Assembly: GCA_003194425.1 (NCBI GenBank)
Contig: PQXB01000001.1
Coordinates: 36,843-68,842 of the forward strand
Direction: 5' to 3'
DNA from: Candidatus Methanophagaceae archaeon
Lineage (GTDB): Archaea; Halobacteriota; Syntropharchaeia; Alkanophagales; Methanospirareceae
DNA length: 32,000 nucleotides
Shown here: positions 1 through 29,266 of the stretch, piece after piece
Layout: each line of letters starts with the position of its first letter
How positions within the stretch are numbered: position 1 is the first letter of the stretch
Program-made: the position numbers and the translations under genes
The notes under the pieces: generated by a model
The model's database searches: none
Told to the model about the DNA's origin: nothing
Seen by the model: the letters and a program-made list of their open reading frames with translations, nothing else

Positions 1-3000
1 CCTCGTTCTCCTTCTCGCTCTCCTCTCTCTGTTTCTCCTCCAGCCGCTTCTCAACCTCAGCAACATTCAACCGCGTCGAAATTATCGCGTCCGGGTTCAG
101 CGAAATCGAGTCAATCCCGCACTCGACGAGGAACGCGGCGAACTCTGGGAAATCGCTCGGCGCCTGCCCGCAAATCCCAACCTTCCGCCTCGGCTCGTGC
201 TCGTGCGCTACTTTTATGACCTGCTTCACCAACCTTTTCACTGCCTCGTTCCGCTCGTCAAACAAGCCCGCAACCAAGTCCGAATCGCGATCCAAGCCCA
301 GCGTCAGTTGCGTCAGGTCGTTCGAGCCGATGCTGAACCCGTCAAAGACCTCCGCAAACTCGTCCGCCAAGATCACATTCGACGGAATCTCGCACATCAC
401 ATAAACCTCCAACCCGTTCTCGCCCTGCCGCAGTCCGAACTCTGCCATCGTTTTTATCACTTTCCTGCCCTCCTCGGGCGTCCTGCAGAACGGAATCATA
501 ACTTTGACATTCGTCAGACCCATTTCTTCACGCACTTTTTTTATCGCACGGCACTCCAGCCCGAACGCGGGCTTGAACTTCTCGTCGTAGTAGCGAGACG
601 CACCACGCCACCCCAGCATTGGGTTGTTCTCCGCGGGCTCGTAGAGGTAGCCGCCGAGCAAATTCGCGTACTCGTTCGTCTTGAAGTCAGAGAGCCGAAC
701 AATCACCTCGTTGGGATAAAATCCTGCTGCGATCTTCGCAATTCCCCGCGCCAAGTTGTCCACGAAAAACTGCACCTTGTCCTCGTAGGACGCACTCCGC
801 TTCTCTATTTCTTTGACCACTCTCGCCAGCTTCTTGTCTCCTCCTGCTCCTCCTGCTCCTCCTGCTCCTGTTTCCGCCCGCCGCTTCAAGTCCTCGTACT
901 CAAGCAGGGCGAGGGGGTGAATGCCGATGTAGGAATTAATGATGAACTCCTCGCGAGCCAAGCCGACGCCGTCGTTTGGGATTTGCCCCTGAATAAAAGC
1001 GTTCTCCGGCACCGCCGCGTTCATCATTATTCGTGTCCCCGGTCTCGGAAGATTGTCCAACACCAGCTTCTCTACGCGGTATTTCAGTCTCCCCTCGTAG
1101 ATTCGCCCCGTCCCTTCCGAGCAGTCCACCGTAACATCTTTTACACCCTTCAACACCCTCGTCCCTCGGACTGTCCCGATAACGCAGGGAATGCCGAGTT
1201 CGCGTGAAATTATCGCAGCGTGGCAGGTCCGCCCTCCCCGGTTCGTAACAATCGCACCCGCGACTTTCATTATCGGCTCCCAGTCAGGGTCGGTCATATC
1301 CGTAACCAACACCTGCCCAGGCTTGAAGTTGAGAATGTCTCGGGCGTTCTCGATCACATTTACTTCGCCGTACCCGATTTTGTGCCCTACAGCCTCGCCC
1401 TCGACCAACAGCCTACCCGCCTCTTTGAGCTTTTCCACCTCCTCTTCCAGCACGTAAGTCTCGAGCGAGGAGAGGTCTTTCTGCGAGTGCACGGTCTCAG
1501 GTCGCGCCTGAACAACGAAGAGTTCGCCTGTCGTCCCGTCTTTCGCCCACTCGATGTCCATCGGCGTCCCGTAGTGCTCCTCAATAATGCACGCCCACCG
1601 CGCGAGCCTCAGCACCTCGTCGTCGGTCAGCACGAATTTTTTCCGGTCTTCTTCCCCTACCTTCTCCTGCCTCGTCCCTGTCCCTGTCTTTCTCGCCCCT
1701 GCCCCCGTTCCTGTCTTTCCTGCCTCTGCCCCCGTTCCTGTCTTTCCTGCCCCTGCCTCTTTGTAGACCATTTTCTTCCGCTTCGAACCCAGTTTCTTCT
1801 CAACAATCGGGCGGAAGCCCTGCCTCAAAGTCGGCTTAAAAACATAAAACTGGTCGGGATTTACCGCTCCCTGCACCACGTTCTCGCCGAGCCCGTAAGC
1901 GCCGGTGATGTAAACAGCGTCGCTGAAGCCCGACTCGGTGTCAATCGAGAACATCACGCCCGAGCACGCCAAGTCCGAGCGAGCCATTTTCTGCACGCCG
2001 ACTGAGAGGAAGACGCTGAGGTGGTCGAAGCCCTTGTCCACGCGGTAGGAAATCGCTCGGTTCGTGAAAAGAGAAGCGAAGCACTCCATCACTTTCTCCA
2101 CCAACTCGTCCTCACCCCGCACGTTCAGGTAAGTCTCCTGCTGCCCTGCGAAACTCGCTGTGTTGTGCGTTATTATCCCCCCCATTCCAGCAGCGAAATT
2201 CTCTACCCCCGGAACAACAAAATCGTAGACGTAACCCGAATATTCAATCGGTTCTATTTCTTTTATGCCGTCCCACATTACAGCCCCTTTCAAACCCTCA
2301 AGAACCTCCTCCGCTCCGTAATTCTCTGCTACTCTTCTCAAAAGTCTCGCCCCAATTCTTCTTGAAATCCCCCCTTTATTCCACGGCGTCGCCCCTTTCT
2401 CAAATCGCCGCTCCTTTTCAACCTCGTCTTCGTAAAACGCCTTACCGCATTTCTTGCAATAAAATCTCGTTTTACCTTTGTAACGACTCGTTCTTCCAAC
2501 CACCGAACTGCACAGCGGACAGCGGCTCTCTTCCACCTCTTCCCTGGGCAACCTCTCCTCAACCGCGTCTCTGAACAAATCGGGATTTATTTCAAAGACC
2601 TCAATGAAATCAAAATGCTTCTCTTTCCCTTTGTAGTCTTCAGCCAGCGCATTCAACCTCTCGGCTTTTTTGACGCACTCGAAACCTACCAGGCGACTGA
2701 ACCGCTCTGCCTCCTTGTAGGGAATTGAAATTCTGGTTAATTTCCTCCGCAAGTAAAACTTCACGCCAAGCCGCTCTAAAAGCACTGCGACTCCTCCAAT
2801 CAGGTCTTTAGAAAGGGAAGAGTAATTTATGGCGTTCTTTCCTACATCGCCGTCGCTGTCAAAACAGCCGCGCAAGAACGCACCCACCAACTCCCTCTCC
2901 AGCCCAAAGACAAAATCAGGCACCCTCTTCGTTCTGCAGTGCCGCCCTTTTCCCTGCTGATTTAGAGGCGCCCCTGCCACTCGGTGTAAGAACGAGACAA

Positions 3001-4168
3001 GCGAGGGGCAGTACACACGAACGCTTCCCTTGTTTATTTTCCTGCCCTCGTGCCACAAGCCCAAACCTTCAAGAAAGTCAGTCACTCGCTTTCGGATCTC
3101 AGGCGACGAGATTGTAATGCTGACCTCGTTCTGTTTGTAGGTGCTGCCTTCTGCGGCGTAGATTCCCAAGAAATAGAGAAACTCTTCGGTTAGGGGTAAA
3201 TTGCGAGGCAACCCGTTCTGAATCTTCCAATTCCCGCTTCTTTTTAGCTTTACCTTCCCTGCCTCGTCTGTTACCGCTTCGTCGCTCTTCTCGCCACTCT
3301 TCAAATATTCCAAAACATCCAAATGCCGTCTCGCAGTCCTTGAAGCCCCTCTCCCAGTCTTAGGGTTAGGGTCAGGGTTAGGGTCAGGGTCAGGGACAGG
3401 GTCAGGGTCAGGGAGCCGCCTTACAACAGGAATTTTGTCCTCGGGCTCTAAGTCTTGAATGGATTTTGTCCTGACTTTAAAGTCGCGGTCCAAGACGATT
3501 AGAGAATGGTCAGGGCTTACTTTTATCTCGCGTCCTGTTTTGGTGGTTATTTTGAAAAGAGTTGCCGCGTTTGCGGGATGCCTGTAAATCTCGTCCACCC
3601 TCTTCCACTTCACCTCTTTCCCTTTCTCCATCGCAGGGACTTCCATTCTGACGCCGGCGCCATTTCCGTTGTTTTTCGCTGCTTCTCTGTTGTACTCTTC
3701 GTACAGCCCTTCGACTTCCTGATAAACCGTCTTCCCTCCAAACTTGACCAACACCGGTTCGTCAGCAGCGATGCTCGGCAGATCCTCCGCGGTCGCACTG
3801 CTCCTAACAGCAACGTCAACGCCCTCGCCGTACCGCTTTTCCATTTCTCTGTAAGCGGCTCGAATCTCCTGCTCCAGCTCCGCGGGGCAGCCTGCGTTTT
3901 TTATCAGCGCCCGTATTTTGCTACCCCGCTCAGCCAAGTTCTTCATATCGTGCGTGTCTAAATCCGCAAGCGTGTCCCTGATTTTCCCCTGAATGCCCCC
4001 TACTTCGAGCACGTACTTGTAAGCCTCGGCAGTCACCGCAAAGCCCGAAGGAACATTCACGCCCTCCTCGGTCAGGTTTCTAATCATCTCGCCAAGAGAC
4101 GCGTTCTTACCGCCGACCAAGCCGACGTCGCCAGTTCCCACCTCTTCAAACCATTTTATGAATTTCAT
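1..4168 (-). CDS. ppsA: Phosphoenolpyruvate synthase (pyruvate, water dikinase), intein-containing; 3' end runs off the left window edge
   Basis: Not in the supplied ORF track because no stop lies inside the window. My reverse-strand translation from ATG at 4168 stays open to position 2. N-term MKFIKWFEEVGTGDVGLVGGKNASLGEM. Block VAVRSSATAEDLP / TASFAGQQETYLNV is interrupted by an intein. Phospho-His motif TNRGGRTCHAAIISRELGIPCVIG. C-terminal block GICGQAPSD...GIDSISLNPDA. Confidence 0.93.
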   Translation of the reverse strand, partial: MKFIKWFEEVGTGDVGLVGGKNASLGEMIRNLTEEGVNVPSGFAVTAEAYKYVLEVGGIQGKIRDTLADLDTHDMKNLAERGSKIRALIKNAGCPAELEQEIRAAYREMEKRYGEGVDVAVRSSATAEDLPSIAADEPVLVKFGGKTVYQEVEGLYEEYNREAAKNNGNGAGVRMEVPAMEKGKEVKWKRVDEIYRHPANAATLFKITTKTGREIKVSPDHSLIVLDRDFKVRTKSIQDLEPEDKIPVVRRLPDPDPVPDPDPNPDPNPKTGRGASRTARRHLDVLEYLKSGEKSDEAVTDEAGKVKLKRSGNWKIQNGLPRNLPLTEEFLYFLGIYAAEGSTYKQNEVSITISSPEIRKRVTDFLEGLGLWHEGRKINKGSVRVYCPSLVSFLHRVAGAPLNQQGKGRHCRTKRVPDFVFGLERELVGAFLRGCFDSDGDVGKNAINYSSLSKDLIGGVAVLLERLGVKFYLRRKLTRISIPYKEAERFSRLVGFECVKKAERLNALAEDYKGKEKHFDFIEVFEINPDLFRDAVEERLPREEVEESRCPLCSSVVGRTSRYKGKTRFYCKKCGKAFYEDEVEKERRFEKGATPWNKGGISRRIGARLLRRVAENYGAEEVLEGLKGAVMWDGIKEIEPIEYSGYVYDFVVPGVENFAAGMGGIITHNTASFAGQQETYLNVRGEDELVEKVMECFASLFTNRAISYRVDKGFDHLSVFLSVGVQKMARSDLACSGVMFSIDTESGFSDAVYITGAYGLGENVVQGAVNPDQFYVFKPTLRQGFRPIVEKKLGSKRKKMVYKEAGAGKTGTGAEAGKTGTGAGARKTGTGTRQEKVGEEDRKKFVLTDDEVLRLARWACIIEEHYGTPMDIEWAKDGTTGELFVVQARPETVHSQKDLSSLETYVLEEEVEKLKEAGRLLVEGEAVGHKIGYGEVNVIENARDILNFKPGQVLVTDMTDPDWEPIMKVAGAIVTNRGGRTCHAAIISRELGIPCVIGTVRGTRVLKGVKDVTVDCSEGTGRIYEGRLKYRVEKLVLDNLPRPGTRIMMNAAVPENAFIQGQIPNDGVGLAREEFIINSYIGIHPLALLEYEDLKRRAETGAGGAGGAGGDKKLARVVKEIEKRSASYEDKVQFFVDNLARGIAKIAAGFYPNEVIVRLSDFKTNEYANLLGGYLYEPAENNPMLGWRGASRYYDEKFKPAFGLECRAIKKVREEMGLTNVKVMIPFCRTPEEGRKVIKTMAEFGLRQGENGLEVYVMCEIPSNVILADEFAEVFDGFSIGSNDLTQLTLGLDRDSDLVAGLFDERNEAVKRLVKQVIKVAHEHEPRRKVGICGQAPSDFPEFAAFLVECGIDSISLNPDAIISTRLNVAEVEKRLEEKQREESEKENE
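836..871 (-). repeat. 9-bp tandem repeat in ppsA encoding (GAG)n
   Basis: Plus strand reads ctcctgctc x3-4. Sense strand encodes ETGAGGAGGAGGD between the conserved blocks EYEDLKRRA and KKLARVVKEIE. Confidence 0.8.
1672..1760 (-). repeat. 27-bp tandem repeat in ppsA encoding GAGKTGTGAEAGKTGTGAGARKTGTGT
   Basis: Two near-identical 27-bp units at 1701-1727 and 1728-1754, plus a degenerate flank. Inserted between KKMVYKE and EDRKKFVLTDDEV. Confidence 0.85.
2162..3775 (-). mobile_element. PpsA intein, 538 aa, with LAGLIDADG homing-endonuclease domain and an embedded CxxC...CxxC zinc ribbon
   Basis: It splits the conserved AEDLP|TASFAGQQ block. N-terminal block SIAADEPVLV (Ser1), block B SPDH, C-terminal YVYDFVVPGVENFAAGMGGIITHN followed by Thr+1. 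LAGLIDADG-like motifs LYFLGIYAAEGS and GAFLRGCFDSDGDV. Zinc ribbon CPLCSS...CKKCG at 2444-2521. Length is 1614 nt, in frame. Confidence 0.85.
3363..3413 (-). repeat. 6/12-bp repeat inside the PpsA intein encoding PDPDPVPDPDPNPDPNP; (GGGNNN)x9 on the plus strand
   Basis: Nine GGG tracts spaced by exactly 3 nt: gggttagggtcagggttagggtcagggtcagggacagggtcagggtcaggg. Confidence 0.9.
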
Positions 4169-4210
4169 AATTCGACTCCTTCGCCTACGAGTTGTAATTT
4201 TATCCTCCAA

Positions 4211-4250: not shown

Positions 4251-4339
4251 TGAAGACGCATAAAAGTGAAACACGAGAGAGGGGCAAAATAGAGGAGGAG
4301 CATAGTAGAGGAGGGGCAAAATAGAGAAATAAGAGACGA

Positions 4340-4867
4340 ATGATTGAAGAAGAAATCGGGAACGAGCTACGAAGAGCGGGCGGCGGCGCAACCCTTGCCA
4401 CCGCGGAGTCCTGCACCGGCGGGCTGGTCTCGCACAGACTAACGAACGCCCCTGGCTGCTCGGACTACTACAAAGGCGGTGTCGTCGCTTACGCCAACGA
4501 GGCGAAGGAGAAGGTTTTGGGTGTCGCGGGGGAGACGCTGCGGGAGAAGGGGGCGGTGAGCGCGGAGTGCGCGGTTGAAATGGCGCGGGGCGTGCGCGGG
4601 CTGTTTGAGAGCGACTTCGGCGTTGCAACCACCGGAATCGCAGGTCCCAGCGGGGGAACGCCCGAGAAACCTGTAGGTTTAGTTTTTATAGCAGTGGCGA
4701 CAAGAGACTTCGCAGACTATGAAAAACACTTCTTCCACGGGGACAGGGAAACGAACAAGCGCGAGGCGGCGGAGGCTGCGCTTGGAATGCTGAAGAAAAA
4801 AATCTTGAAAATAAAAACAGGAACAAAAGGGCTCGTAGCTCAGAAAGGTAGAGCAGCGGGCTTTTAA
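4340..4867 (+). CDS. cinA: CinA C-terminal domain / nicotinamide-nucleotide amidohydrolase (PncC)-like protein
   Basis: LATAESCTGGLVSHRLTNAPGCSDYYKGGVVAYANEAKEKVLGV and GVATTGIAGPSGGTPEKPVGLVFIA are typical CinA_C blocks. The reading frame has no stop until inside the tRNA gene. Confidence 0.8.
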   Translation: MIEEEIGNELRRAGGGATLATAESCTGGLVSHRLTNAPGCSDYYKGGVVAYANEAKEKVLGVAGETLREKGAVSAECAVEMARGVRGLFESDFGVATTGIAGPSGGTPEKPVGLVFIAVATRDFADYEKHFFHGDRETNKREAAEAALGMLKKKILKIKTGTKGLVAQKGRAAGF

Positions 4868-4902
4868 CCCGTCGGTCGCGGGTTCAAATCCCGTCGAGCC
4901 CG
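4829..4902 (+). tRNA. tRNA-Lys (anticodon UUU)
   Basis: Hand-folded cloverleaf of 74 nt. Acceptor GGGCTCG/CGAGCCC, D stem GCTC/GAGC, anticodon stem GCGGG/CCCGT with loop CTTTTAA, 5-nt variable loop, T stem GCGGG/CCCGT with loop TTCAAAT, discriminator G. No encoded CCA. Confidence 0.9.
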
Positions 4903-4912
4903 TTCCTTTCCA

Positions 4913-5242
4913 ATGAAAAAAATGAAAAAAACGAAGGTAGCCGAGTCAAAAATACTTGAGCACGCGTTAGTGCCAAAGCACGAAATAATGAGCGAGGCAG
5001 AGGTAAAAGAACTTTTAGACAGCTACAAAATAAGGAAAGCGCAGTTGCCCAAGATTAAATCTTCTGACCCAGTCTGCAAGGAGATAAAAATAAAAATTGT
5101 GGGCAAGAAAGGGGGCAAAAACAAGACCGCAGAGCAGACAAAGGAGAAGGAAAGAACGGCAGAGGTCGGCGATATCGTGAAAATAACGCGGCAGAGCAGA
5201 ACCGCGGGAAAAGTCTTTTCTTACCGTCTCGTCGTGGAGTAA
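4913..5242 (+). CDS. rpoH: DNA-directed RNA polymerase subunit H (Rpo5) with a lysine-rich insertion
   Basis: HALVPKHEIMSEAEVKELLDSYKIRKAQLPKIKSSDPV and GDIVKITRQSRTAGKVFSYRLVV are canonical RpoH blocks. About 22 extra residues (KIKIVGKKGGKNKTAEQTKEKERTAEV) lie between them. Position upstream of rpoB is as expected. Confidence 0.9.
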   Translation: MKKMKKTKVAESKILEHALVPKHEIMSEAEVKELLDSYKIRKAQLPKIKSSDPVCKEIKIKIVGKKGGKNKTAEQTKEKERTAEVGDIVKITRQSRTAGKVFSYRLVVE

Positions 5243-5243: not shown

Positions 5244-5300
5244 GCAGGGTGGAGAGAAGGTGGAAAGCAGGGTGGAGAGAAGGTGGAAAGCAGGGTGGAG
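5244..5300 (+). repeat. 23-bp purine-rich tandem repeat (2.5 copies) in the rpoH-rpoB spacer
   Basis: gcagggtggagagaaggtggaaa at 5244-5266 and 5267-5289, with a partial third copy from 5290. It starts 2 nt after the rpoH stop. Confidence 0.9.
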
Positions 5301-5383
5301 AAAAAAAGTAAGGTGGAACAGGTGGGTAGAGCAGGAGCAGCAGAGCAAGTAGGTAGAGTAAAAGTAAAAGGGGAGAGAGCAGA

Positions 5384-8300
5384 GTGTTAGACCGGAATGT
5401 TGTTGCGAAATCATATTTCACGAGGGAAAAAATAGCGCAGCACCAGCTCGACTCGTTCAACTACTTCCTCGAGAAGGGAATGCAGAAAGTCGTGGACGAG
5501 CAGTCCTACTCCTGGACTTCAATCAGCGGCGAGGACGAAGTGGAGGACGAGTGGAAGGGCGAGAAGACGGACGAGAGAGAGGAGAAAAAAACAGGCGAGG
5601 GAAAGGGTGAGAGCGAGGTAGAAGTAGAAGAGGAGGGGAGCAAGAGAAAGTATAAAATTGGCGTTAAGTTCGGTGAAATAACTGTAGGCAGACCGAAGGC
5701 ACGGGAAGCAGACGGGTCTTACGAACCAATTTTCCCGTCGCAGGCGAGGTTGCGGAACTTGAACTACGCTGCACCGCTTCGTTTGGAAATGCAGTTAGTG
5801 AAAAAATACGAGGACGGCGACGCGGAAACAGGCGAAGCAGAAATTGTAGAGGTGGGCGAGAAGAAAGCAGTTGAAATCGGCGAGCTCCCGATAATGCTGC
5901 GGTCAAAGAACTGCAACCTTTACGGGCTTTCGGACGAGGAACTGGCGCTGGCGGGCGAAGACCCGTTTGACCCCGGCGGGTATTTTATCGTGAACGGGGC
6001 GGAGCACGTGATAATCACGCTTGAAGACCTCGCACCGAATCGGATTTTCGTGAGTTACGAGGAGCGGTACGGCGGTAAATCCCCAGTCGCAAAGGTCTTC
6101 TCAACTAAACACGGCTTCCGCGTCCCGATAAAAGTGGGAATAAGCAAGAAAGGGATTCTCGAGGTCTCGTTCCCCGCGGTCGCCAAGAAGATTGAGTTTG
6201 TAACGCTTCTGCGGGCGCTGGGGCTTGAGAGCGAGGAGGAGATTCTGCGGGCGGTCTCGGACGACCCGCAAATTGAGCGCTACATTCGCGAGAACATTGA
6301 AGAGAGCGATGTGAGCACGCAAGAGGAGGCGTTGAACAAGTTGGGTCGCAGAATTGTGCCCGCGCAGGCGAAGGAGTACAGGGAGAAACGCGTTAATTAT
6401 ATTTTTGACCGCTACTTCCTACCGCACCTCGACGACCACTTGGCGAAGGCGCATTTCATCGGCAGAATGGCGGAGGCGTGCTACGAACTTTATTTGGGCA
6501 GGCGGGGCGAGGACGACAAGGACCACTACGCGAACAAGCGGCTGAAACTCGCGGGCGACCTGATGGAAGACCTTTTCCGCGTCTCGTTCTCGAAATTGAC
6601 GCGGGATATGCGGTACCAGTTGGAGCGTGCAGAAATGCGGAAACGGGAACTGAAAGTCGCAACCGCGATTCGGTCCGATGTCCTGACCGAGCGGATTTTG
6701 CACGCGCTGGCGACTGGGAACTGGGTCGGCGGCAGAGCGGGCGTCTCGCAACTGCTGGAGCGGACGAATTATTTGGCGACTGCGAGCCACCTGCGGCGGA
6801 TAATTTCTCCGCTCTCGAGGTCGCAGCCGCATTTTGAGGCGCGGGACTTGCACCCGACGCAGTGGGGCAAGATTTGCCCGACCGAGACGCCAGAGGGTCC
6901 GAACTGCGGGTTGGTGAAGAATTTTTCGCAGCTGGTTGAAATCTCGGTTGGTGCGGAGGGTGCGGAGGGTGCGGAGGGTGCGGAGGGTGCGGAGGGTGCG
7001 GAGGGTGCGGAGGAAGAGCACGAGCGGCTTAAAATTGCTTTCTACGAACTCGGCGTTGTCCCTCCTGCAGCGAAAATAAAAGCGAAGGGAAGAACTCGTG
7101 TTAGGACTCGCGTCTTCCTGAACGGCGATTTTATCGGCTTTGTCGGCTCTTCTACCGAGCCAGAGCGGTTTGTAGCGGAGGTGAGGCGGAAGAGGAGAAG
7201 GGGCGAAATCTCGGGGCAGGTGAACCTCGCCTACTACCGGGACAGGCGGGACATTTTAATAAACTCGGACAGGGGCAGGGCGAGGAGACCGGTAATTGTC
7301 GTTGAGGACGGAAAACCGCTGGTTACGGAATCGCAGGTTGAACAGCTGAGAAACGGCGAGATTGTGTTTGAGGATTTGGTGAAGTCGGGGGTGGTAGAAT
7401 ATTTGGACGCTGAAGAGGAGGAGAACGCACTGGTAGCGTTGGAGGAGGCGGACCTGACGAGGGCGGGAAAGAAGGCGGGAGAGGAAGGCGACGCAGAAGG
7501 GGGTGCAGTAGCGAGGGGCGAGTACACGCATCTTGAAATCGACCCGTCGTTGATTTTGGGCATTGTTGCAGGCGTAATTCCTTACCCCGACCACAACTCC
7601 TCGCCGCGGAACACGATGGGCTGTGCGATGCTGAAACAGTCGTTGGGGCTTCCTGCTGCGAACTACAAGACCCGCACCGACACCCGAGTGCATCTTTTGC
7701 AGTCCCCGCAGAAGCCGTTGGTGAAGACGCGGACTGCGGACTTAATTTTGCACGACAAGCGACCGGCGGGGCAGAATTTCGTGGTCGCAGTCTTGAGCTA
7801 CGAGGGTTACAATATGGAGGACGCCCTGATTTTAAATCGCGCGGCTGTAGACCGCGGGCTGGGGCGGAGTTATTTTTTCAGAACCTACGAAGGAGAGGAG
7901 CGGCGGTACCCGGGCGGCGAGGAGGACAGGTTTGAGGTGCCGGACGCGGAGACGGTCGGCGTTCGAGGTCAGGAGGCGTACAGCCAGCTCGACGAGGACG
8001 GGATAATAAATTCTGAGGTTGCAGTGGCGCCGAACGATGTGCTGATCGGGAAGACGAGCCCGCCGCGGTTCTTGGAGGAGACGACCGAGCTCTTGAGCCC
8101 TTTGGAGCGGCGGGACAGCTCGGTCTGCACGCGGTCTAACGAGCAGGGGACTGTAACTTCGGTCGTGCTGATGGAATCGAGCAGCAACCGGCGTTTGGCG
8201 AAAATCGCTGTCCGCGACCACAAAATCCCCGAAATCGGGGACAAGTTCGCGTCAAGGCACGGTCAGAAAGGCGTGATTGGGTTGATCGTGCCGCCTGAAG

Positions 8301-13563: not shown

Positions 13564-13575
13564 AGAGGGCGTAAG

Positions 13576-16405: not shown

Positions 16406-16420
16406 ACTTAGGTGAAGTGA

Positions 16421-18471: not shown

Positions 18472-18558
18472 ATGTCGGGCTAATCGCAGCGGTAGGCGGT
18501 AGGGTAGGCGGTAGGAAAGGTAGGAAGAAGGTTAGAACAGGGCAGGGAGGGGACGGAG

Positions 18559-19840: not shown

Positions 19841-20461
19841 ATGAAACAACTCTCGGCAGTGGCACTATTGTTTGTAATCTTTTTGGGTAGTCTTTTCGTT
19901 TATGTAGCAGAGGACATTCCTGCTTTTGGCGACCCGAATTCCGCTCCTAACAGGTATGTCAAGTTGTTCGAAATTGATGCTGCGGGGTTAGAGGGCGATT
20001 TAGAGCAGGGCGTTCTCCCTGCGAGTTTAGTGGATAATTTAGAGGATGAGATTGAAGAACGCGGTTTTCCTCTTCCTTCTGGAGTTGCGAGGGTTTCGGG
20101 AAAGGGAGAGGGAGAAGGAGAGGGAGAAGGAGAGGGAGAGGGAGAGGAAGCGGAAGGCGCCTGGGAGGCGGTTATTGTCCCAGCGGAGACGGAGCAGCAT
20201 TTCTACCCGAAGGAGCAGAAGTACTACTTTATCGAGAAGAGGGGGGAGAAGTTGTGGGTTTACCGCTACGCACCTGTCAAAAGGTATATGGAGGAGGGGC
20301 CTAATGAGACAAATGTACCGAATATGGTAACTTACATTCTCGCAGACTACAGGGGCTACGACACGCTTGGGGAGACGACTGTCATTTTCACCGCCGGCGT
20401 TGCGGTTATGCTGTTATTGAGGAGGCGGGAGAAGAGACCGCGGGAGAAGCGACCGGAATGA
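19841..20461 (+). CDS. MbhE-like membrane subunit (MnhB-related), roughly doubled in length by an internal insertion
   Basis: N-terminal TM helix plus IPAFGDP. C-terminal NMVTYILADYRGYDTLGETTVIFTAGVAVMLLL is the MbhE signature. About 100 extra residues in between include (GE)n. Confidence 0.7.
   Translation: MKQLSAVALLFVIFLGSLFVYVAEDIPAFGDPNSAPNRYVKLFEIDAAGLEGDLEQGVLPASLVDNLEDEIEERGFPLPSGVARVSGKGEGEGEGEGEGEGEEAEGAWEAVIVPAETEQHFYPKEQKYYFIEKRGEKLWVYRYAPVKRYMEEGPNETNVPNMVTYILADYRGYDTLGETTVIFTAGVAVMLLLRRREKRPREKRPE
20098..20157 (+). repeat. 6/12-bp repeat encoding GKGEGEGEGEGEGEGEEAEG
   Basis: ggagagggagaa units read directly. Confidence 0.9.
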
Positions 20462-21066
20462 ATAAAAAAGAAAGTAGCAAAGGGGAAGAGAGTAGCAAAA
20501 GGGAAGCGAAGGGGGGGGATGTAATTATTGAAGTGGTTACGAGGCTGATGGTTCCTTTTATTCAGTTGTTCGCGTTGTATGTGATAATTCACGGAGCAGG
20601 CGGACCAGGAGGCGGATTTCAGGGTGGTGTCATCTTCGGCTCCTCTTTTATCCTGTATGCCATCGCGTTTGGCATCGTCAAAGCGGGCAACAGGTTCTCG
20701 GAGTCTGCAAATACCGTCTTCTTCAGCACCGGCGTCTACATCTACGCAGGCGTGGGGCTGCTCTGCGTAATTCTCAGTTACGGCGCTGCCCAGTTCCTAA
20801 ATTACGGCTTCATTCCGCTGACGCACCATTTTGAAGAGAACAGGGCTCTCGGAATGGACCTCGTGGAAATCGGAATTGGGATAACTGTGATGGCTGTAAT
20901 TACTTCAATTTTCTTTAACCTCGCCTGGAAGCGAGAAAACGAAGGAGGGAAAAAAGCAGGAGAAGGAGGAGGAGAAGGAGGAGGAGAAGGGAGAAGACAA
21001 GCGGAAGGAGGGGAAGGAAGAGAAAGAAGGGAAGGAAGAGAAAGAAGAGAGGAGGTGAGGGGATAA
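20458..21066 (+). CDS. mrpB: Mrp/Mnh-type antiporter subunit B (MbhF-like) with a G/E/R-rich C-terminal tail
   Basis: VVTRLMVPFIQLFALYVIIHGAGGPGGGFQGGVIFG. ATGA overlap with the upstream gene. The tail from about 20930 reads KRENEGGKKAGEGGGEGGGEGRRQAEGGEGRERREGRERREEVRG. Confidence 0.88.
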   Translation: MNKKESSKGEESSKREAKGGDVIIEVVTRLMVPFIQLFALYVIIHGAGGPGGGFQGGVIFGSSFILYAIAFGIVKAGNRFSESANTVFFSTGVYIYAGVGLLCVILSYGAAQFLNYGFIPLTHHFEENRALGMDLVEIGIGITVMAVITSIFFNLAWKRENEGGKKAGEGGGEGGGEGRRQAEGGEGRERREGRERREEVRG

Positions 21067-21501: not shown

Positions 21502-22278
21502 ATGCTTGAAGCACAGACAGTTAGCGTGGCGTTCTGCTTCTGCTGCCTGATTTACGCCTCTCTCTCGGACCTAAAGACGAGAACCGTAGGGAACTGGCTT
21601 TGGGTGTTTATGGCTGCGGTAGGTGTCCCGCTCGCTACTTGCGGCATTCTCACGCACGCCGCCCACACCGCCGTCCAACTAATCTTCTCCGTCCTCTCTA
21701 CCTCGGTGTTAGCCTTTTTCTGCTTTAGACTGGGTCTCTTTGGTGGTGCGGACGCGAAGGCACTAATTTGCATTTCGTTGCTTATTCCAAGTCATTTCTC
21801 GAGAGGGGTAGGAGCAGTAGGAGCAATTTCCTGTCCGTTTGCAGTTACGACGCTTTTTAACGCTGCTCTTCTCTCTACCGCTGCTCCGCTCTCGGTCTTC
21901 TTTTATAATTTATTTCAAGAGAGAAAAATAGAAAATGTTAAATTAATGTTCGTTGGTTACAAGGTCCCTGTCGGCGAGCTTGCGTGTAAAAAGTATGTAA
22001 GATTAGTTCATTCGTATGAGGAAGAGGTGGTGGGCGAGGGAGAAGGAGAAGACGAGGGGGAAGGAGAAGGAGAGAAGGTAGTAAAAAGATTTTCGTTTGG
22101 TGGTGTAGAGATTGACGAGGAGACGGTGAAGAGGTTAAAAGAGTACGCTGCGGAGGGTAAAATTGAAGACGAGGTCTGGGTGACGCCAGAATTACCGTTT
22201 ATGCTTTTCATCACCGCTGGCTTTTTTATCTCGGTTGTGTGCGGTAATTTAATAATGCTTGTATTTTCTTTACCATAA
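21502..22278 (+). CDS. A24-family aspartic prepilin/preflagellin (archaellin) peptidase
   Basis: First catalytic Asp context YASLSDLKTRTV. Second is in GLFGGADAKAL (GxGD-type). Polytopic membrane protein with a cytoplasmic insertion containing GEGEGEDEGEGEGE at 22033-22075. Confidence 0.8.
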   Translation: MLEAQTVSVAFCFCCLIYASLSDLKTRTVGNWLWVFMAAVGVPLATCGILTHAAHTAVQLIFSVLSTSVLAFFCFRLGLFGGADAKALICISLLIPSHFSRGVGAVGAISCPFAVTTLFNAALLSTAAPLSVFFYNLFQERKIENVKLMFVGYKVPVGELACKKYVRLVHSYEEEVVGEGEGEDEGEGEGEKVVKRFSFGGVEIDEETVKRLKEYAAEGKIEDEVWVTPELPFMLFITAGFFISVVCGNLIMLVFSLP

Positions 22279-22833: not shown

Positions 22834-23763
22834 ATGTCAAGAATAAAAAAAATTTTGAGCCTTGCCCTTGCTGGAGTGGCGGTGGCGGTGGTGCTTTTGG
22901 CTGCACTCCACGCTTACTACTTCTTGCCGCCCGAGTCCGTTGAGTTGCTGCTGCCGTCTTCCGCTGGAGGCGGGGACAAAATCGCGATAATTGAGATTAA
23001 CGGCGAGATTAAAGAAAGCAGTTTAGAGCAGGTTCAAAAACTTTTAGACCGAGCCGAGACGGAAGACGAGATAAAAGCGGTCGTGCTCAGAATAAACAGC
23101 GGTGGCGGCGGTGCAGTGGCGTCGTGGAAAATGCACAACGCAGTGAAGCGGCTGAAGTCAAAGTCAAAGTCAAAGGCAGAGGCAGAGGCAAAGGCAAAGG
23201 CAAAGGCAAAGGCAAAGGCAAAGGCAAAGACAGAGAAGCCTGTTGTCGCGTTTATTTCGGATTTCGGGGCTTCGGGTGCGTATTTGGTCGCAGTTGCAGC
23301 GGACAAGATAATTGCAACGCCTGTCTCGACGGTAGGAAGCATCGGAGTGTTAATGGTTTTCCCTTTTGATGTCCCCGCAAACGCGTCCGAGAAAGCCAAG
23401 AACCTCTCCTCTCTCTCTACTGGCGAGTTCAAAGACATTTTTTCAGACTACCGGCTAAACGAGCGGGAGCGGGAATATTTAAATGAGCGGTTGCAGAGTC
23501 TCTTAAAAGTGTTCTTGGAGTGCGTCGCCGAGGGCAGGGGAATGAGCGTTGAGGAGGTGTCAAAGGTGGCACACGGTGGCTGGTTTACTGGGGCGGAAGG
23601 GGTGGAGTTGGGGCTCGTAGACGAGACAGGGGACTTGCAGGACGCTGTGGAGGAGGCGGCAGAACTCGCAAATCTCTCTTTGGAGGACACTAAAGTCGTA
23701 ACTTTAGGAGTCGTGGGCTCGCGAGTGAAAGAGAGAGACTACAAGGGAAAAGGAGAATTTTAA
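22834..23763 (+). CDS. sppA: Signal peptide peptidase SppA (S49 family, 36K type)
   Basis: N-terminal TM helix. IAIIEINGEI, AVVLRINSGGGGAVAS, KPVVAFISDFGASGAYLVAVAADKIIATPVSTVGSIGV. Confidence 0.88.
   Translation: MSRIKKILSLALAGVAVAVVLLAALHAYYFLPPESVELLLPSSAGGGDKIAIIEINGEIKESSLEQVQKLLDRAETEDEIKAVVLRINSGGGGAVASWKMHNAVKRLKSKSKSKAEAEAKAKAKAKAKAKAKTEKPVVAFISDFGASGAYLVAVAADKIIATPVSTVGSIGVLMVFPFDVPANASEKAKNLSSLSTGEFKDIFSDYRLNEREREYLNERLQSLLKVFLECVAEGRGMSVEEVSKVAHGGWFTGAEGVELGLVDETGDLQDAVEEAAELANLSLEDTKVVTLGVVGSRVKERDYKGKGEF
23155..23229 (+). repeat. 6-bp repeats (aagtca x3, gaggca x2, aaggca x7) encoding KSKSKSKAEAEAKAKAKAKAKAKAK in sppA
   Basis: Read directly. Inserted between NAVKRL and KPVVAFISD. 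Confidence 0.95.
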
Positions 23764-25117: not shown

Positions 25118-28077
25118 TTTAAAGATTCTCTTGTCGTCTGCAAGCCAGTAAAAATCGCTTCTTCCGCTTTCTCCACTCGCTCGCCGCCGCCCTGTGCGAG
25201 CGTTGCTGTCCCCCCGCCACCGCCTCCGAGAACCCCGCAGACTCGGTTTACCAAGACCGAAGCATTTACCTTCTCCTTTAAACCCGCAGGGACAGAGGAG
25301 ACGACCGAAGCCCGACCCCCACTTGACCCCACCAAAATCGTAACGAAACCGCCGTCCTCAGAGGCAGAGAGCTGAGAAGCGATCTTCAGCAGCTCCTTCG
25401 CGTCCGCGCCAGGCAGCACCTCGGCAACCACTTTCACACCGCACACCTCCCTTACCCGCCCCTTCAACCGCTCAAGTTCCAAGTCCGCGATCTCGGCTCG
25501 CAACCGCTCGTTCTCCTTCTTCAGCCGTTTCCAGTCCTCAAAGAACCGTTCAACCGTAGCAGGAAGCTTCTCGGACGGGACTTTCAACACGGACGCAGAT
25601 TTCCTCACCAGTTCTTCCAGAGCCTGCACCTCTTCGACCGCCGCTGCACCTGCCGAGAACTCGATTCTCGCAATGCCGTCCTGAATCCGCTCGGTTCGCA
25701 ATATTTTTATCGGACCGACCTCGCCAGTCCTTGAGCAGTGCGTTCCTGCACAGGCTTGCACGTCCTCGTCCTCGTCCTCTTTCTCCTTTCCCCCGTCCGC
25801 GGAGATTCGGACGATTCTTATTCGTTCGCCTGGCGGAACGCCGCCCTGATAAATTTGGAATCCGTATTTCTGCTCCGCTTCGTTCCTCTCCAAAAAACTT
25901 GCTTTTATTTCCTTGTTCTCCATCACCAGCCGGTTCGCAAGCACCTCAATCTCGCGTCGCTCGGCGTCAGAAATCCGTTTGAAGTGCGTGATGTCAATTC
26001 GCGCTCGCTTCTCGCCTTTCTGCGCACCCGCCTGCCAGACGTGCCCGCCCAGCACCTTCCTCGCCGCCCAGACGACAATGTGCGTTGCCGAGTGGTGTCT
26101 TGTGTGTGCAGCTCGCCGCTCTGCGTCTACGCGACCCAAGACTGCTGCACCTTTGCTCGTTTCGCTTGCTCCACCTTCTCCGATTTTATGAAGAACCACG
26201 CCCTCCGCTTCCTGAACGTCCAGCACTCTAAATCGCCTGTCTTTCAGTGTCCTGTCTTTCAGCGTCAGCGTTAAGAACCCAGTGTCAGCAGGCTGACCGC
26301 CGCCTTCGGGGTAAAAGAGCGTCCTGTCCAAGACCACGAAATCGCCAAACGCGTCCAAGACTGTGGCTTCAAACTCGGTCGCTGACGGCTTCTCGTAAAA
26401 CAACTTCGCCGTCTTCGGAAGTGCCTCCCTCCTCTCCGTCTCTCTCTCCGTCTCCGTCTCTCTCTCCGTCTCCCTCTCCGTCTCTCTCTCCGTCTCTCTC
26501 TCTCTCTCCCTCTCCCTCTTCCGCAACCGCTCTGCAACCGGCTCTGCCTCTTCCTCGTCCTTCCCTTTCCTCTCCTCCTCGCTGTGCATTCTCGCAACCA
26601 AAGAATAAAAATCTTCAGGAACCTCTACTTTCACCCCCCCGCCATTTTTCATTTCAGAGACCACCTCTTTCACAAACTCCGGCGGTAGCCCCTGCGTGTC
26701 GTACAAATTAATCAGTTTCTCAAGCGGAATTTCTCGCTTGCCCTCTTGCTCGACCCTCGTGAGTTGTTTCACGATTCGCTCGCCTTTCAAGAGCGTCTCG
26801 TCGAACCTCCTCTTCTCTAACGGCACGATTTCAAAAATTCTCTCCACGAAATTCTCCAACTCCGGAAAAGAGTTCTTGAGCGTTTTTATCTGCAGCAGCA
26901 CTACCTCCTCCAGCGGCATTTCGGTCTCAATTCCCAACAATTTCAGCATTCTAAAAGCCCGTCGCAAGACCAGCCTCGCAAGGTAGCCTTCCTTCGCGTT
27001 TGACGGCACGACACCGTCAGCGAGCATAAAAGCCAGGCATTTTGCGTGGTCTGCGACTGCGTAAACCGTCTCAATCGGCGCTAATATTTTGCTGAATTCT
27101 TCAGGTGAGACACCCAGCCTCTCGGCTCGCTCTCGCCGTCCCAACGCCCCGCACAACCTCGCATTCTGCAGAACAACCTCTGGGTGCGTCTCCAACGGGT
27201 GCTCAATTCCCGCAGCGTTCGTCAGCTCCGCCACTACCTCTGGGAAAACGGCGTCGTAGACCGTCGGCGTGCCTTTAGACGCCCACACGAACCGTTCCAG
27301 CCCGTAGCCGGTGTCCACGATGTAAGTGTCCATTTTCTCGTACGACTGCCCCTTCAGGTTTATTTCGCCTTCCCCTCGAGGCGTGTGAAGAGGAGCAAGT
27401 TTGAGGTTCATAAAAACGAGCGTAGCAAGTTCCAACCCGTTCGTGAGGACTTCAAGGCAGGGTCCCGCGTTCCCTCCGCCAACCCACGGCGCTTCCTTGT
27501 AGGTCACGCTCTCCTTCGGCACGCCGAGTTGCTGCAGAAAATCGTCGCAGTACCGCACCGTCTCCTCCTTCCAGTAAATCTCTTCGGACCGCGAGCGCGA
27601 GTGTGAGCGTGAGTTAAAGGCGTGGTGTCCCATCATTTCAAAAGCGGTTAAGTGGCGACCCGTCTTCCCGATTGACTCGAGGTCTTCAAGTCGGATGCAG
27701 GGCTGGGAAATGACGAGCGGGTTCGCAGGCGGCGGGACTTTCCCAGAGGTTACAAACGGCTGGAAGTTCGCGATCGAGGCGATGTTTAGGTAAATGTCGT
27801 CCCGCCAGCGTGCCACCACCGGGTACCGCTTCAGCCTCGTGTGCTTGTGCGGGCAGTGCTCGAAGAAAGACAGGAACGCCTCCCGCACTTCTTCCACGTT
27901 CTGCTCTTTGAAAATCGGGTTACCGATGAACGAGTAAAACTCGCAGGGTGCGTCGCCGCAGGTGCTTCTCTCCGTGTTGCGAGTCCAGAAGTGCGAGCCG
28001 CATTTTTCGCACCTCTTCCGCACGAACCCGTTCTCCTTGAAAAATTTTAGGTTGTACTCTTGGTCTTGGCTCGCCAT
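25105..28077 (-). CDS. alaS: Alanine--tRNA ligase, archaeal type, 990 aa with several low-complexity insertions
   Basis: N-terminal FFKENGFVRKRCEKCGSHFWT. FQPFVTSGKVPPPANPLVISQPCIRLEDL, VDTGYGLERF. Editing-domain HxxxH-type motif HSATHIV. C-terminal DHHA1-like GGGGGTATLAQGGG. Confidence 0.95.
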   Translation of the reverse strand: MASQDQEYNLKFFKENGFVRKRCEKCGSHFWTRNTERSTCGDAPCEFYSFIGNPIFKEQNVEEVREAFLSFFEHCPHKHTRLKRYPVVARWRDDIYLNIASIANFQPFVTSGKVPPPANPLVISQPCIRLEDLESIGKTGRHLTAFEMMGHHAFNSRSHSRSRSEEIYWKEETVRYCDDFLQQLGVPKESVTYKEAPWVGGGNAGPCLEVLTNGLELATLVFMNLKLAPLHTPRGEGEINLKGQSYEKMDTYIVDTGYGLERFVWASKGTPTVYDAVFPEVVAELTNAAGIEHPLETHPEVVLQNARLCGALGRRERAERLGVSPEEFSKILAPIETVYAVADHAKCLAFMLADGVVPSNAKEGYLARLVLRRAFRMLKLLGIETEMPLEEVVLLQIKTLKNSFPELENFVERIFEIVPLEKRRFDETLLKGERIVKQLTRVEQEGKREIPLEKLINLYDTQGLPPEFVKEVVSEMKNGGGVKVEVPEDFYSLVARMHSEEERKGKDEEEAEPVAERLRKRERERERETERETERETERETETERETERREALPKTAKLFYEKPSATEFEATVLDAFGDFVVLDRTLFYPEGGGQPADTGFLTLTLKDRTLKDRRFRVLDVQEAEGVVLHKIGEGGASETSKGAAVLGRVDAERRAAHTRHHSATHIVVWAARKVLGGHVWQAGAQKGEKRARIDITHFKRISDAERREIEVLANRLVMENKEIKASFLERNEAEQKYGFQIYQGGVPPGERIRIVRISADGGKEKEDEDEDVQACAGTHCSRTGEVGPIKILRTERIQDGIARIEFSAGAAAVEEVQALEELVRKSASVLKVPSEKLPATVERFFEDWKRLKKENERLRAEIADLELERLKGRVREVCGVKVVAEVLPGADAKELLKIASQLSASEDGGFVTILVGSSGGRASVVSSVPAGLKEKVNASVLVNRVCGVLGGGGGGTATLAQGGGERVEKAEEAIFTGLQTTRESLKCLK
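26426..26523 (-). repeat. 12-bp repeat encoding RKRERERERETERETERETERETETERETERRE in alaS
   Basis: The plus strand is a ctc/tct/cgt pyrimidine run, so the sense strand is purine-rich. It lies in the linker before the editing domain (upstream of LFYEKPSATEFEATVLD). Confidence 0.9.
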
Positions 28078-28210: not shown

Positions 28211-29266
28211 TCACCTCGAAAACTCGACAAACTCCTTCAACTTCGCTGCCGCCCGTCCTTCCTCCAAAACCCCACGAGCGACCTCAAAACCATCTTCTAA
28301 GCTCCCTGCCTCGTCAGCAGCGAAAATAGCCGCCGCCGCGTTCAGCAAAACAACAGCCCGCCTCGCTCCTTCTTCTCCTCCTTCTTCTTCTCCTGCTTCG
28401 GTGCCGGTGTCGGTGCCGCTGCCGCTCAAAACCGCCTGCAAAATTCTTGCACTCTCTTCCCGCGAGCCACCTGCAATCTCGCTCGGCGACGCAACCTGCA
28501 GACCAAAATCCTCTGGTTTTATGAAGTAGGAGGTTATTTCACCTTTTTCCGCTTCCAGCTGCGAGACCTTCGTCTTCCCGCAGACCGAGACCTCGTCCAG
28601 CCCCGGCTCGCCGTGCACCACCAACGCCTTCCGCAGTCCCAAAATCCGAAGCACCTTCGCCACCTTCTCGGTGAGTGCGGGGTCGTAAACGCCGACGAGT
28701 TGGTGCGTCGCGTTCGCGGGGTTCGTGAGTGGGCCCAGAATATTGAAGACGGTCCGCAACCCCAACCCACGCCTTACCGGCACCACATTCTTCATCGCCC
28801 GGTGGTGCAGCGGTGCGAACATAAACCCAATCCCAACCTTCTCGATGCACTCCTCAATCCTGCGAGGCGGTAAATTCAAATTCACGCCCAACTCCTCCAA
28901 AACGTCCGCACTGCCGCACTTTGAGGTTACCGACCTGTTTCCGTGCTTCGCGACTGGGACCACGCAGGCAGTGACGAAAGCCGCGGTGGTAGAAATGTTG
29001 AAGGTTTTTGTCGCGTCGCCACCTGTCCCGCAGACATCCACGCTCTTCTCCACCTTCGGGTTTATTTTTAACGCGAGGTCTCGCATAACTCTTGCGAACG
29101 CTGCAATTTCCTCCTCGGTCTCGCCCTTCATCCGCAAAGCAGTCAAGAAAGCAGCGGTCTGAATCTCACCTGCCTCTCCGCTCATCATCGCCCGCATCGC
29201 CGCTTCCGCCTCTTCTGCTGTCAGGTTCTCCTGCTCCGCAACCTTGCTGAGATAATTTTCAAGCAT
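28211..29266 (-). CDS. trpD: Anthranilate phosphoribosyltransferase
   Basis: FLTALRMKGETEEEI, DVCGTGGDATKTFNISTTAAFV, VAKHGNRSVTSKCGSADVLEELGV. Insertion SGSGTDTGTEAGEEEGGEEG at 28366-28428. No other trp genes are in the window. Confidence 0.88.
   Translation of the reverse strand: MLENYLSKVAEQENLTAEEAEAAMRAMMSGEAGEIQTAAFLTALRMKGETEEEIAAFARVMRDLALKINPKVEKSVDVCGTGGDATKTFNISTTAAFVTACVVPVAKHGNRSVTSKCGSADVLEELGVNLNLPPRRIEECIEKVGIGFMFAPLHHRAMKNVVPVRRGLGLRTVFNILGPLTNPANATHQLVGVYDPALTEKVAKVLRILGLRKALVVHGEPGLDEVSVCGKTKVSQLEAEKGEITSYFIKPEDFGLQVASPSEIAGGSREESARILQAVLSGSGTDTGTEAGEEEGGEEGARRAVVLLNAAAAIFAADEAGSLEDGFEVARGVLEEGRAAAKLKEFVEFSR

Follow-up and report, generated by a model that had tools for sequence, protein, structure and literature searches.

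In-frame variable-number tandem repeats in RNA polymerase and other housekeeping genes of an ANME-1 archaeon, probably produced by replication slippage and filtered by selection

Background

Why should an archaeon carry runs of short tandem repeats inside the genes of its RNA polymerase, ribosomal protein L30e and alanyl-tRNA synthetase (AlaRS), that is, in proteins ranking among the most highly conserved known? The question is raised by 32,000 nucleotides (nt) of DNA from a Candidatus Methanophagaceae archaeon (assembly GCA_003194425.1, contig PQXB01000001.1, positions 36,843 to 68,842), a member of group 1 of the anaerobic methanotrophic archaea (ANME-1). This whole stretch is called the window below, and positions are counted from its first letter. 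An initial annotation, made from the letters alone, had described purine-rich insertions in many of its genes and considered their density unexpected for archaea. Archaea have the lowest density of short tandem repeats of any domain, with no expansion (PMC12699852), and low-complexity regions take up only about 0.07% of archaeal residues (PMC6821194); as we report here, the density is indeed abnormal, both in comparison with archaea generally and with close relatives. Searches of the literature for tandem repeats, low complexity and insertions in ANME-1 gave no description of the feature. We conclude that it consists of real, lineage-specific, in-frame variable-number tandem repeats, and that an account in terms of slippage followed by a selective filter is well supported.

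Results

Counting the arrays called by Tandem Repeats Finder (TRF) at a score of at least 50 after merging, we find 24 in the window, which make up 5.0% of its bases and contain about 4% of its codons; mononucleotide shuffles of the window give 0.25 arrays on average, and triplet shuffles none. The unit measures a multiple of three nucleotides (3n) in all 19 coding arrays, as the initial annotation had claimed, and in two of the five intergenic arrays, whose units measure 16, 23, 13, 12 and 12 nt (the 23-nt unit being the one already reported between rpoH and rpoB). Since 3n units are thus the rule in genes and not in spacers, a frame filter is acting on a process that is itself blind to frame. 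The arrays are 5.5-fold denser in intergenic than in coding DNA (3.45 versus 0.62 per kilobase, kb).

The repeats had also been described as purine-rich on the sense strand whichever DNA strand carries the gene, with a single exception, and this agrees with our measurements: the sense-strand purine fraction is 0.74-1.00 in 18 of the 19 coding arrays, against 0.583 in coding sequence outside arrays, and falls to 0.29 only in the pyrimidine-rich Pro-Asp (PDP) array in the intein of PpsA. The 430 array codons encode Gly (25%), Glu (24%), Ala (13%), Lys (11%), Arg (10%), Thr (5%) and Ser (4%), and never Ile, Phe, Tyr, Trp, Met, Cys or His, so that this composition, together with the alignments presented below, bears out the claim that G/A/E/K/R/T/S peptides are placed between conserved blocks or at protein ends. 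At fourfold-degenerate third positions, purines amount to 84% in arrays versus 59% outside, and of 17 arrays 15 lie above the background (p = 0.002 in a sign test); the purine bias is therefore partly a property of the DNA or RNA. Moreover, sequence that is GA-rich along the flanking transcription units also occurs where no peptide is selected, in the spacer arrays at 4279, 5244 and 16414 and in that part of the array at 13444 which lies in the spacer.

Unit sequence and unit length differ at every site, no shared flanking motif is evident, and most arrays are imperfect (70-95% match in TRF). The arrays are not CRISPR (clustered regularly interspaced short palindromic repeats) arrays, because these need identical repeats split by unique spacers; here the units adjoin directly without spacers, and most lie within genes. 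TRF places arrays at all the coordinates listed in the initial annotation, within a few bases, and finds none in the neighbouring genes that it had listed as free of repeats. The insertions can in general be described as tandem repeats, as it had proposed, except that those of RpoH (residues 60-82), of the RpoB N-terminus (residues 53-88) and the SRSHSRSRS segment of AlaRS are low-complexity sequence and not clean tandem repeats. Six arrays had escaped it: three intergenic (4279-4326, 16414-16499 and 18491-18515) and three coding, in RpoB (7462-7490), across the C-terminus of MbhE and the N-terminus of MrpB (20425-20506) and in AlaRS (26236-26266).

That copy number may vary between strains had been supposed from the start, and it does. 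A metagenome scan and exact-protein look-ups gave a same-species set of 23 contigs from JGI, ENA, NCBI and Logan assemblies, with identities of 97.1-100% to the window (the look-ups returned no record for RpoA'', TrpD and protein P0067, and for CinA and RpoH only a 1.9-kb contig); single contigs are cited below by L-numbers. In pairwise alignments of the window with contigs 97-99.5% identical to it, insertions and deletions lie almost only inside arrays and consist of whole units. When alleles are sized as the length of the in-frame segment containing each array, most arrays show two to eight length alleles that are whole numbers of units apart; among 1222 comparisons of random control segments, 36 gave a change of length, mainly in intergenic DNA. 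Called protein lengths vary only in repeat-bearing genes and are constant for NusA, S12, TrkA, the methylase, PNPOx, MbhD, MrpG and MrpF. All coding allele differences but one are multiples of three, and the intergenic differences include 23, 25, 33 and 34 nt. The coding arrays are therefore not phase-variation loci, because their alleles stay in frame, the A24 peptidase allele of contig L115 being the sole exception. With head-to-tail units above chance expectation and whole-unit copy variation between strains, the arrays are variable-number tandem repeats.

The exceptional A24 allele of L115 is 86 nt long and out of frame, and in L105 a run of N falls exactly at the L30e array; either the arrays break assemblies or they now and then inactivate genes.

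Two strains allow the region to be followed leftwards beyond the window for about 5 kb, which brings the genome scope examined to about 37 kb. Here Rpo7/RpoE has a C-terminal (EK/ER)n tail, with a protein length of 215 or 205 residues (L121 4357-5004; L122 4482-5099), and S24e has an internal GEKSAKGE duplication, with 110 or 118 residues (L121 3738-4070; L122 3839-4195). Both vary in length, and the phenomenon therefore extends past the borders of the window.

The feature is restricted to one lineage. A scan with RpoA'' of one genome per prokaryotic species returned ANME-1 (Methanophagales) genomes alone, with a best match of 74% identity, and together with metagenomic loci this provided 55 and 44 ANME-1 loci, which were submitted to TRF. 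Against 0.75 arrays per kb in the window, the median of these approximately 100 syntenic loci is 0-1 per locus, or 0-0.05 per kb. Perfect repeats of at least 50 nt and at least three units occupy 0.38% of the window versus 0.006% of 1.3 megabases (Mb) of other ANME-1 loci. We further aligned RpoH, RpoB, RpoA', RpoA'' and L30e with 40 ANME-1 sequences each. Residues 60-82 of RpoH, 53-88, 524-543 and 702-713 of RpoB, 1074-1109 and 1474-1503 of RpoA' as well as its intein (448-982), 239-259 of RpoA'', and 45-65 and 91-98 of L30e occur only in the lineage of the window, in all cases flanked by near-invariant blocks. No such inserts were found in the ANME-1 alignments of NusA, S12, S7 and CinA.

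Two relatives have inserts of their own at equivalent places. The L30e of ANME-1-LC (protein P0028) contains a separate (TG)n insert at the site equal to the second L30e insert of the window, which looks like an independent use of one permissive site. In L062 (a contig of ERZ791558), the RpoA'' loop equal to positions 14290-14352 of the window holds an unrelated insert of about 30 residues with a CPGCG motif, judging from which it is possibly a small zinc-binding element. The ANME-1-LC locus itself (L052, JACGMN010000032.1) was considered as a second case of the phenomenon and rejected: its eight arrays in 13.8 kb have periods of 5, 7, 14, 17 and 20 nt and are of the intergenic type.

The initial annotation had advised mapping the insertions on structures, and they map to gaps and predicted loops. 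The RpoB inserts fall at gaps in the Pyrococcus and Thermococcus RpoB of the PDB. In AlaRS, the (RE/TE)n insert lies exactly between the two stretches matched by HMMER to the Archaeoglobus fulgidus enzyme (3WQY), and three smaller inserts (EDEDED, TLKDR and SRSHSRSRS) align with gaps of 3WQY, the last at a gap of six residues. AlphaFold2 predicts residues 48-71 of L30e as coil between a helix and a strand, and residues 66-79 of RpoH as coil between secondary-structure elements, both with a predicted local distance difference test (pLDDT) score below 50, in models that are weak overall (mean pLDDT 52 for L30e and 68 for RpoH). The array peptides have a charged and strongly disorder-promoting composition.

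Which organism is concerned? Over the 106 residues called there, the RpoH of the window is 100% identical to PXF51879.1. An RpoH with 98% identity (P0068, GCA_026133975.1) groups, in clustering at 90% identity, with the RpoH of the Guaymas Basin "ANME-1 cluster archaeon ex4572_4", the most abundant archaeal genome in a Guaymas study (PMC5569505). The species is likely the Guaymas G37 ANME-1a lineage. The G37 ANME-1a draft of Krukenberg et al. measures 1.40 Mb in five scaffolds, with 1402 genes and 52% GC, comes from a culture at 37 °C, and is accompanied by metatranscriptomes (PMC5947290); the GC content of the window is 53%. Among the ANME genomes compared in the G37 genome paper, it had the highest GC content and the smallest size (PMC5947290), which hints at an altered mutational regime; repeats are not mentioned in that paper.

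Three general properties were considered as causes and rejected. High GC content does not suffice, as the ANME-1-related loci L042, L044, L048 and L051 (GC 0.54-0.585) hold zero or one array. Purine loading does not distinguish the lineage either, the RNA polymerase genes having a sense purine fraction of 0.59-0.60 versus a median of 0.604 in array-free relatives. Finally, heat adaptation is not the cause, because the organism, whose likely source is the 37 °C culture, is probably mesophilic, with a small genome; on shared columns the window does not stand out in the IVYWREL index (the share of these seven residues), an index not calibrated for these proteins.

The arrays themselves are described here from left to right; those of ppsA, alaS and trpD are on the minus strand and the others on the plus strand. 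PpsA has an array at 838-869 with sense unit CAGGAGGAG (3.6 copies, 100% match in TRF), encoding GAGGAGGAGG. This GAGG-type array is absent in L121 and L122, which have KRRAEAEGDKK in place of KRRAETGAGGAGGAGGDKK, and was therefore born recently. By contrast with this array, the 27-nt unit at 1665-1757 (TRF, 3.5 copies, AGKTGTGAE-like) has an unchanged length in both strains. The Pro-Asp array of the intein (3362-3413; sense GACCCT, 8.7 copies; TRF, Pfam) lies in an in-frame segment of 78 nt, which measures 54, 78 or 135 nt across three strains. Between ppsA and cinA, TRF finds three copies of a 16-nt unit (4279-4326), GA-rich on the cinA sense strand, adjoined in L121 by an extra 11-nt repeat block.

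In the RNA polymerase genes, the degenerate low-complexity insert of RpoH (IKIVGKKGGKNKTAEQTKEKERT, 5090-5158), present in none of the 40 ANME-1 orthologues, has an additional seven-residue duplication (GGKSKTE) in L122. The rpoH-rpoB spacer array (5244-5301; 2.5 units of 23 nt, 100% match in TRF) has alleles of 45, 68 and 91 nt, that is, in steps of 23 nt. RpoB begins with an acidic/basic insert (5540-5647), a degenerate array again found in none of the 40 orthologues. Between Pfam Rpb2 domains 3 and 4, it has 7.1 copies of GGTGCGGAG (6950-7013, TRF), encoding (GAE)7, with seven units in the window, five in L056 and three in L103 and L104. The 20-residue insert delimited by alignment with ANME-1 orthologues at 7462-7522 is eight residues longer in L056, L103 and L104 through expansion of (GKKx)n. 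The Gly/Glu array in the RpoA' intein (10445-10515; TRF, Pfam) shows changes of -15 and +42 nt among strains. Within Rpb1 domain 3 of RpoA', the composite (EAGA)n/(SAES)n array detected by TRF at 12242-12396 lies in a 63-residue segment that measures 21, 37, 43 or 63 residues in strains, at a site that is length-variable in other ANME-1 too. The C-terminal (EK/ER)n tail of RpoA' (13444-13569; TRF, 24-nt unit) continues past the stop codon into the rpoA'-rpoA'' spacer; it is missing from orthologues and is 24 nt shorter in L057. RpoA'' carries 4.8 copies of CAGGCACGAAGG (14294-14351; 100% match in TRF), encoding (GTKA)n, also missing from orthologues, with four units in the window, L056 and L113, three in L057, L058, L104 and L105, and two in L103.

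L30e has a first insert at 15161-15226, (GAGAR/GA)n, whose 33-residue segment ranges from 17 to 37 residues in ten sequences, a further allele being broken by Ns, and a second one, TGTGTSTGAE, at 15278-15308 (TRF, alignment). A 13-nt unit fills the rps12-rps7 spacer (16414-16499, TRF), where strains differ by +9, +33, +34 and +58 nt and so are not bound to multiples of three. In the Mrp/Mbh cluster, TRF detects a 12-nt unit between mrpF and mrpG (18491-18515; -12 and +12 nt among strains) and units of 27 and 9 nt in the K/G/E/R low-complexity N-terminal extension of MrpE (18911-19064), which lies in a 58-residue segment with eight alleles of 49-64 residues. The MbhE-like protein has 8.3 copies of GGGAGA, encoding (GE)n (20098-20147), in a 26-residue segment that spans 24-40 residues among 12 sequences, and at its junction with MrpB (20425-20506, TRF) REKRP is duplicated at the C-terminus of the former and ESSKGE at the N-terminus of the latter. 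The C-terminal (GEGG)n/(GRERRE)n tail of MrpB (20954-21055) has ten alleles in 13 sequences, its 42-residue segment measuring 38-56 residues.

The array of the A24 prepilin-type peptidase, (GEGEDE)n (22035-22069), is 18 nt longer in four strains. In SppA, 12.5 copies of AAGGCA (23155-23229), encoding (KA/KS/EA)n, gave 12 distinct versions and seven lengths among 13 sequences, with 24-40 residues for the 34-residue segment. AlaRS contains the EDEDED micro-array (25761-25779, TRF), 6 nt shorter in three strains, the duplication of TLKDR (26236-26266, TRF), and the SRSHSRSRS insert seen in translation (27586-27612). Its main array, (RE/TE)n (26431-26519), lies in the linker from the catalytic/tRNA-recognition half to the editing half, in a 39-residue segment that takes eight lengths (19-53 residues) in ten sequences. 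Finally, the TrpD array (28366-28424), (GEE)n plus (GT)n, lies in a 27-residue segment of 23-31 residues in eight sequences.

Gene calls were checked by Pfam, which confirmed every gene identity given in the initial annotation. The window starts on the minus strand with PpsA (phosphoenolpyruvate synthase) and continues on the plus strand with CinA, RpoH, an unsplit RpoB, RpoA' (1503 residues including its intein), RpoA'', L30e, NusA, S12 and S7; from rpoH to the S7 gene this is the canonical archaeal operon, syntenic with about 100 ANME-1 chromosomal loci. TYW3 follows on the minus strand, then the Mrp/Mbh-type membrane-complex cluster (MrpF, G, E, MbhD, E, MrpB, C), the A24 peptidase, PNPOx, SppA, TrkA, a DNA methylase, AlaRS, TrpD and a NosD/beta-helix protein. 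The PpsA intein (2162-3775, minus strand) has S...HN/T ends, a Pfam Intein_splicing match and a LAGLIDADG domain. That of RpoA' (10367-11971, plus strand) has C...GN/C ends and matches to Intein_splicing and HTH_23; it directly precedes the catalytic NADFDGD motif and is missing from the RpoA' of the 40 other ANME-1.

Scans of the window with Rfam and for tRNA genes gave tRNA-Lys (anticodon UUU; 4829-4902, plus strand) as the sole match. The final 39 nt of the CinA open reading frame (ORF; 175 residues) coincide with part of it, so that some 13 residues at the end of CinA are read from the tRNA gene, and some 21 lie outside the Pfam CinA domain (residues 3-154); being beyond this domain and partly tRNA-encoded, the C-terminal tail may lie outside the functional domain. 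Gene content also differs between strains: between TYW3 and mrpF, L103 contains an additional three small ORFs (12592-13728), L111 (5486-6637) and L114 (1228-2379) have an extra 383-residue ORF between trpD and alaS, and the NosD-like protein measures 905-1389 residues across strains.

Discussion

We think that replication slippage, followed by a filter of selection, is the probable explanation of these arrays. They would be hypermutable micro- and minisatellites with units of 6-36 nt, born and changed in length when short direct repeats realign out of register during DNA synthesis, by slippage or possibly by unequal recombination, at a rate that in one ANME-1 species would be far above that of its relatives. 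The process would act everywhere, in coding and intergenic DNA alike and regardless of function. In genes, selection would retain only 3n units, only hydrophilic and flexible peptides (Gly, Glu, Ala, Lys, Arg, Thr, Ser) and only tolerant sites, namely loops at the surface, linkers between domains and the ends of proteins, where the inserts would be nearly neutral. The purine bias would probably have three sources: arrays would be seeded from purine-rich runs of Glu, Lys, Gly and Arg codons, two-letter purine runs would be the likeliest to hold chance direct repeats, and the antisense reading (Leu, Phe, Ser, Pro) would be mostly harmful. Point mutation would finally turn arrays into non-repetitive low-complexity inserts such as those of RpoH and the RpoB N-terminus.

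The greater density of arrays in spacers, the restriction to 3n units in genes only, and the presence of a tandem array in each of the two inteins indicate a process blind to function and then selection; the inteins in particular fit a process to which function is irrelevant. Judging from the gradient that leads from perfect arrays (6950, 14294, 5244, 838) through imperfect ones to the non-repetitive inserts of RpoH and the RpoB N-terminus, arrays apparently continue to be born, to expand and to decay. As a molecular step, slippage would be the simplest, and archaeal PolB and PolD slip on tandem-repeat templates according to work cited in PMC9879509. A lineage-specific change in replication or repair would then be the underlying cause.

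Several points weigh against this explanation. Slippage is not directly distinguished from recombination or from a dedicated enzyme; selection on the peptides does not account in full for the purine excess at synonymous sites; the AlphaFold2 models are weak; and the arrays are known from about 37 kb of the genome only. Neither the high-GC ANME-1 lineages other than that of the window, which are without arrays, nor the array-free relatives, whose RNA polymerase genes have the same sense purine loading, show what sets this lineage apart. Moreover, some arrays do not vary: the length of the second L30e insert is constant in 12 strains, that of the MbhE/MrpB junction duplications in 11 strains, and that of the TLKDR duplication of AlaRS in the sampled strains. 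These length-constant arrays may be older or constrained.

The likeliest alternative, which we consider doubtful but worth keeping in mind, is an expansion coupled to transcription: very stable hybrids of purine-rich RNA with its pyrimidine-rich template (R-loops), or triplex DNA, would stall replication and cause expansion where the transcript is purine-rich, so that the bias would be mutational. The initial annotation had proposed a slippage that is biased by transcription strand and filtered for frame. The frame filter stands (19 of 19 versus two of five); the transcription-strand bias is not proven, because purine-rich seeds together with a filter against hydrophobic peptides would give the same orientation. 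In favour of such a coupling, the purine bias follows gene orientation on both DNA strands and not one strand, it extends to fourfold-degenerate sites, and it is present in the four spacer regions mentioned above. However, the intergenic arrays are only a handful, the Pro-Asp array expands without a purine-rich transcript, and since equally purine-loaded relatives are free of arrays, a further lineage-specific factor would still be required.

It is less probable, in our opinion, that the arrays are adaptive disordered linkers, charged Gly/Glu/Lys/Arg segments kept for solubility, for tuning of assembly or for varying the surfaces bound by viral inhibitors, with copy number as the means of tuning. 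Their charged, disorder-promoting composition would suit such roles, inserts recur at the same permissive sites elsewhere (the second L30e site in ANME-1-LC, RpoA'' in L062), and the authors of the study on Borg tandem repeats argue for function (PMC9879509). But the orthologues of 40 related ANME-1 work without inserts, arrays are equally present in inteins and denser in intergenic DNA, and no common motif or position rule ties them to protein function. The wide range of lengths in near-identical strains, for instance 21-63 residues at the RpoA' site, suggests weak constraint.

A dedicated system that adds repeats, of an integrase-like or reverse-transcriptase-like nature, seems very unlikely to us, as does the removal of the segments as introns or mini-inteins before the protein matures. 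A CRISPR-like addition was raised as a possibility in the Borg study (PMC9879509), and two real inteins are present in the window; yet the units differ at each site with no shared flanking motif evident, Pfam finds the splicing signature only in the two large inserts and in none of the short arrays, and the 3n rule, the lack of stop codons and the harmless residues make sense only if the segments are translated. As for an artefact of short-read assembly or binning in low-complexity DNA, the N run of L105 and the apparent frameshift of L115 tell us that arrays do trouble assemblers, but we regard it as excluded for practical purposes by the copy-number results across independent assemblies, since the same arrays recur in the 23 contigs from differing assemblers, keep the reading frame in all coding alleles but one, differ by whole units and are mostly shorter (25-155 nt) than a read.

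The closest known parallel to the arrays is provided by the tandem repeats, and the amino-acid tandem repeats they encode, of the Borg extrachromosomal elements of Methanoperedens (Schoelmerich et al. 2023, PMC9879509). In both cases arrays with site-unique units pervade genes and spacers, all genic units are 3n and most intergenic ones are not (14-38% 3n in Borg spacers, PMC9879509), copy number evolves fast, homologues have no arrays, and the coding strand has a composition bias, with disorder-promoting peptides that include K/E polyampholytes. By the Borg criteria (perfect repeats of at least 50 nt and at least three units, with no mismatch), the density in the window, 0.38%, is of the same order as the Borg mean of 0.62%, while the chromosomes of Methanoperedens have at most 0.01% (PMC9879509). 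The differences are that we are dealing here with a cellular chromosome and with essential information-processing genes instead of an extrachromosomal element, that the host is ANME-1 and not Methanoperedens, and that the bias is towards A+G with G/E/A/K/R peptides, whereas Borg repeats are A-rich with P/T/E/K. Borg repeats are also almost all perfect, whereas here only those at 6950-7013 and 14294-14351 pass the Borg criteria, and most arrays are imperfect and shade into degenerate inserts.

Other parallels are more distant. The resemblance to the low-complexity expansions of eukaryotic parasites, noticed in the initial annotation, is apt as a description: in Plasmodium falciparum, the conserved blocks of essential proteins are separated by low-complexity segments that are specific to the lineage, follow the nucleotide bias of the genome in their composition, and vary in length between isolates (for context see PMC7534687 and PMC12699852). 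The inserts described here are likewise lineage-specific, variable in length and located in essential proteins, but Plasmodium is a eukaryote with AT-rich, Asn/Lys-rich and often much longer segments, compared with GA-rich, G/E/A/K/R segments of 4-60 residues here. Bacterial variable-number or simple-sequence-repeat loci, such as the in-frame repeats of Burkholderia mallei and B. pseudomallei, are prone to slippage and differ in copy number between strains, and their 3n units alter protein length; the arrays share the short repeats, the strain-dependent copy number and the in-frame units. In phase-variation contingency loci, concentrated in surface or virulence genes, frame shifts switch genes on and off, in contrast with the 3n units of the core housekeeping genes of this archaeon.

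Conclusion

The arrays amount to a natural experiment that shows where archaeal RNA polymerase, L30e, S24e, AlaRS and Mrp/Mbh subunits have loops able to accommodate insertions. As a cellular counterpart to the Borg repeats, they bear on the question of whether the machinery of the host or that of the element makes such repeats. The affected genes are standard phylogenetic markers, in which arrays can fragment assemblies, make strains look more heterogeneous than they are and disturb alignments; the same arrays could be used to tell strains of this ANME-1 lineage apart at high resolution. An enrichment culture with transcriptome data apparently exists for the organism, which would thus be open to testing.

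One can go further and propose, as a possibility in which we believe somewhat less than we doubt it, that a free-living, syntrophic archaeon with a very small genome, probably G37 ANME-1a, has a genome-wide repeat regime of Borg intensity on its own chromosome, continually creating and resizing disordered segments in its RNA polymerase, ribosomal proteins and tRNA synthetases. If this were true, Borg-like repeat formation would reflect a state of archaeal replication and repair and not a machinery encoded by Borgs, and its likely cause would be the loss or change of a function that suppresses slippage, for example a mismatch or flap-processing nuclease. The enrichment culture, with its metagenomes and metatranscriptomes, would then allow the birth of repeats in essential proteins to be studied.

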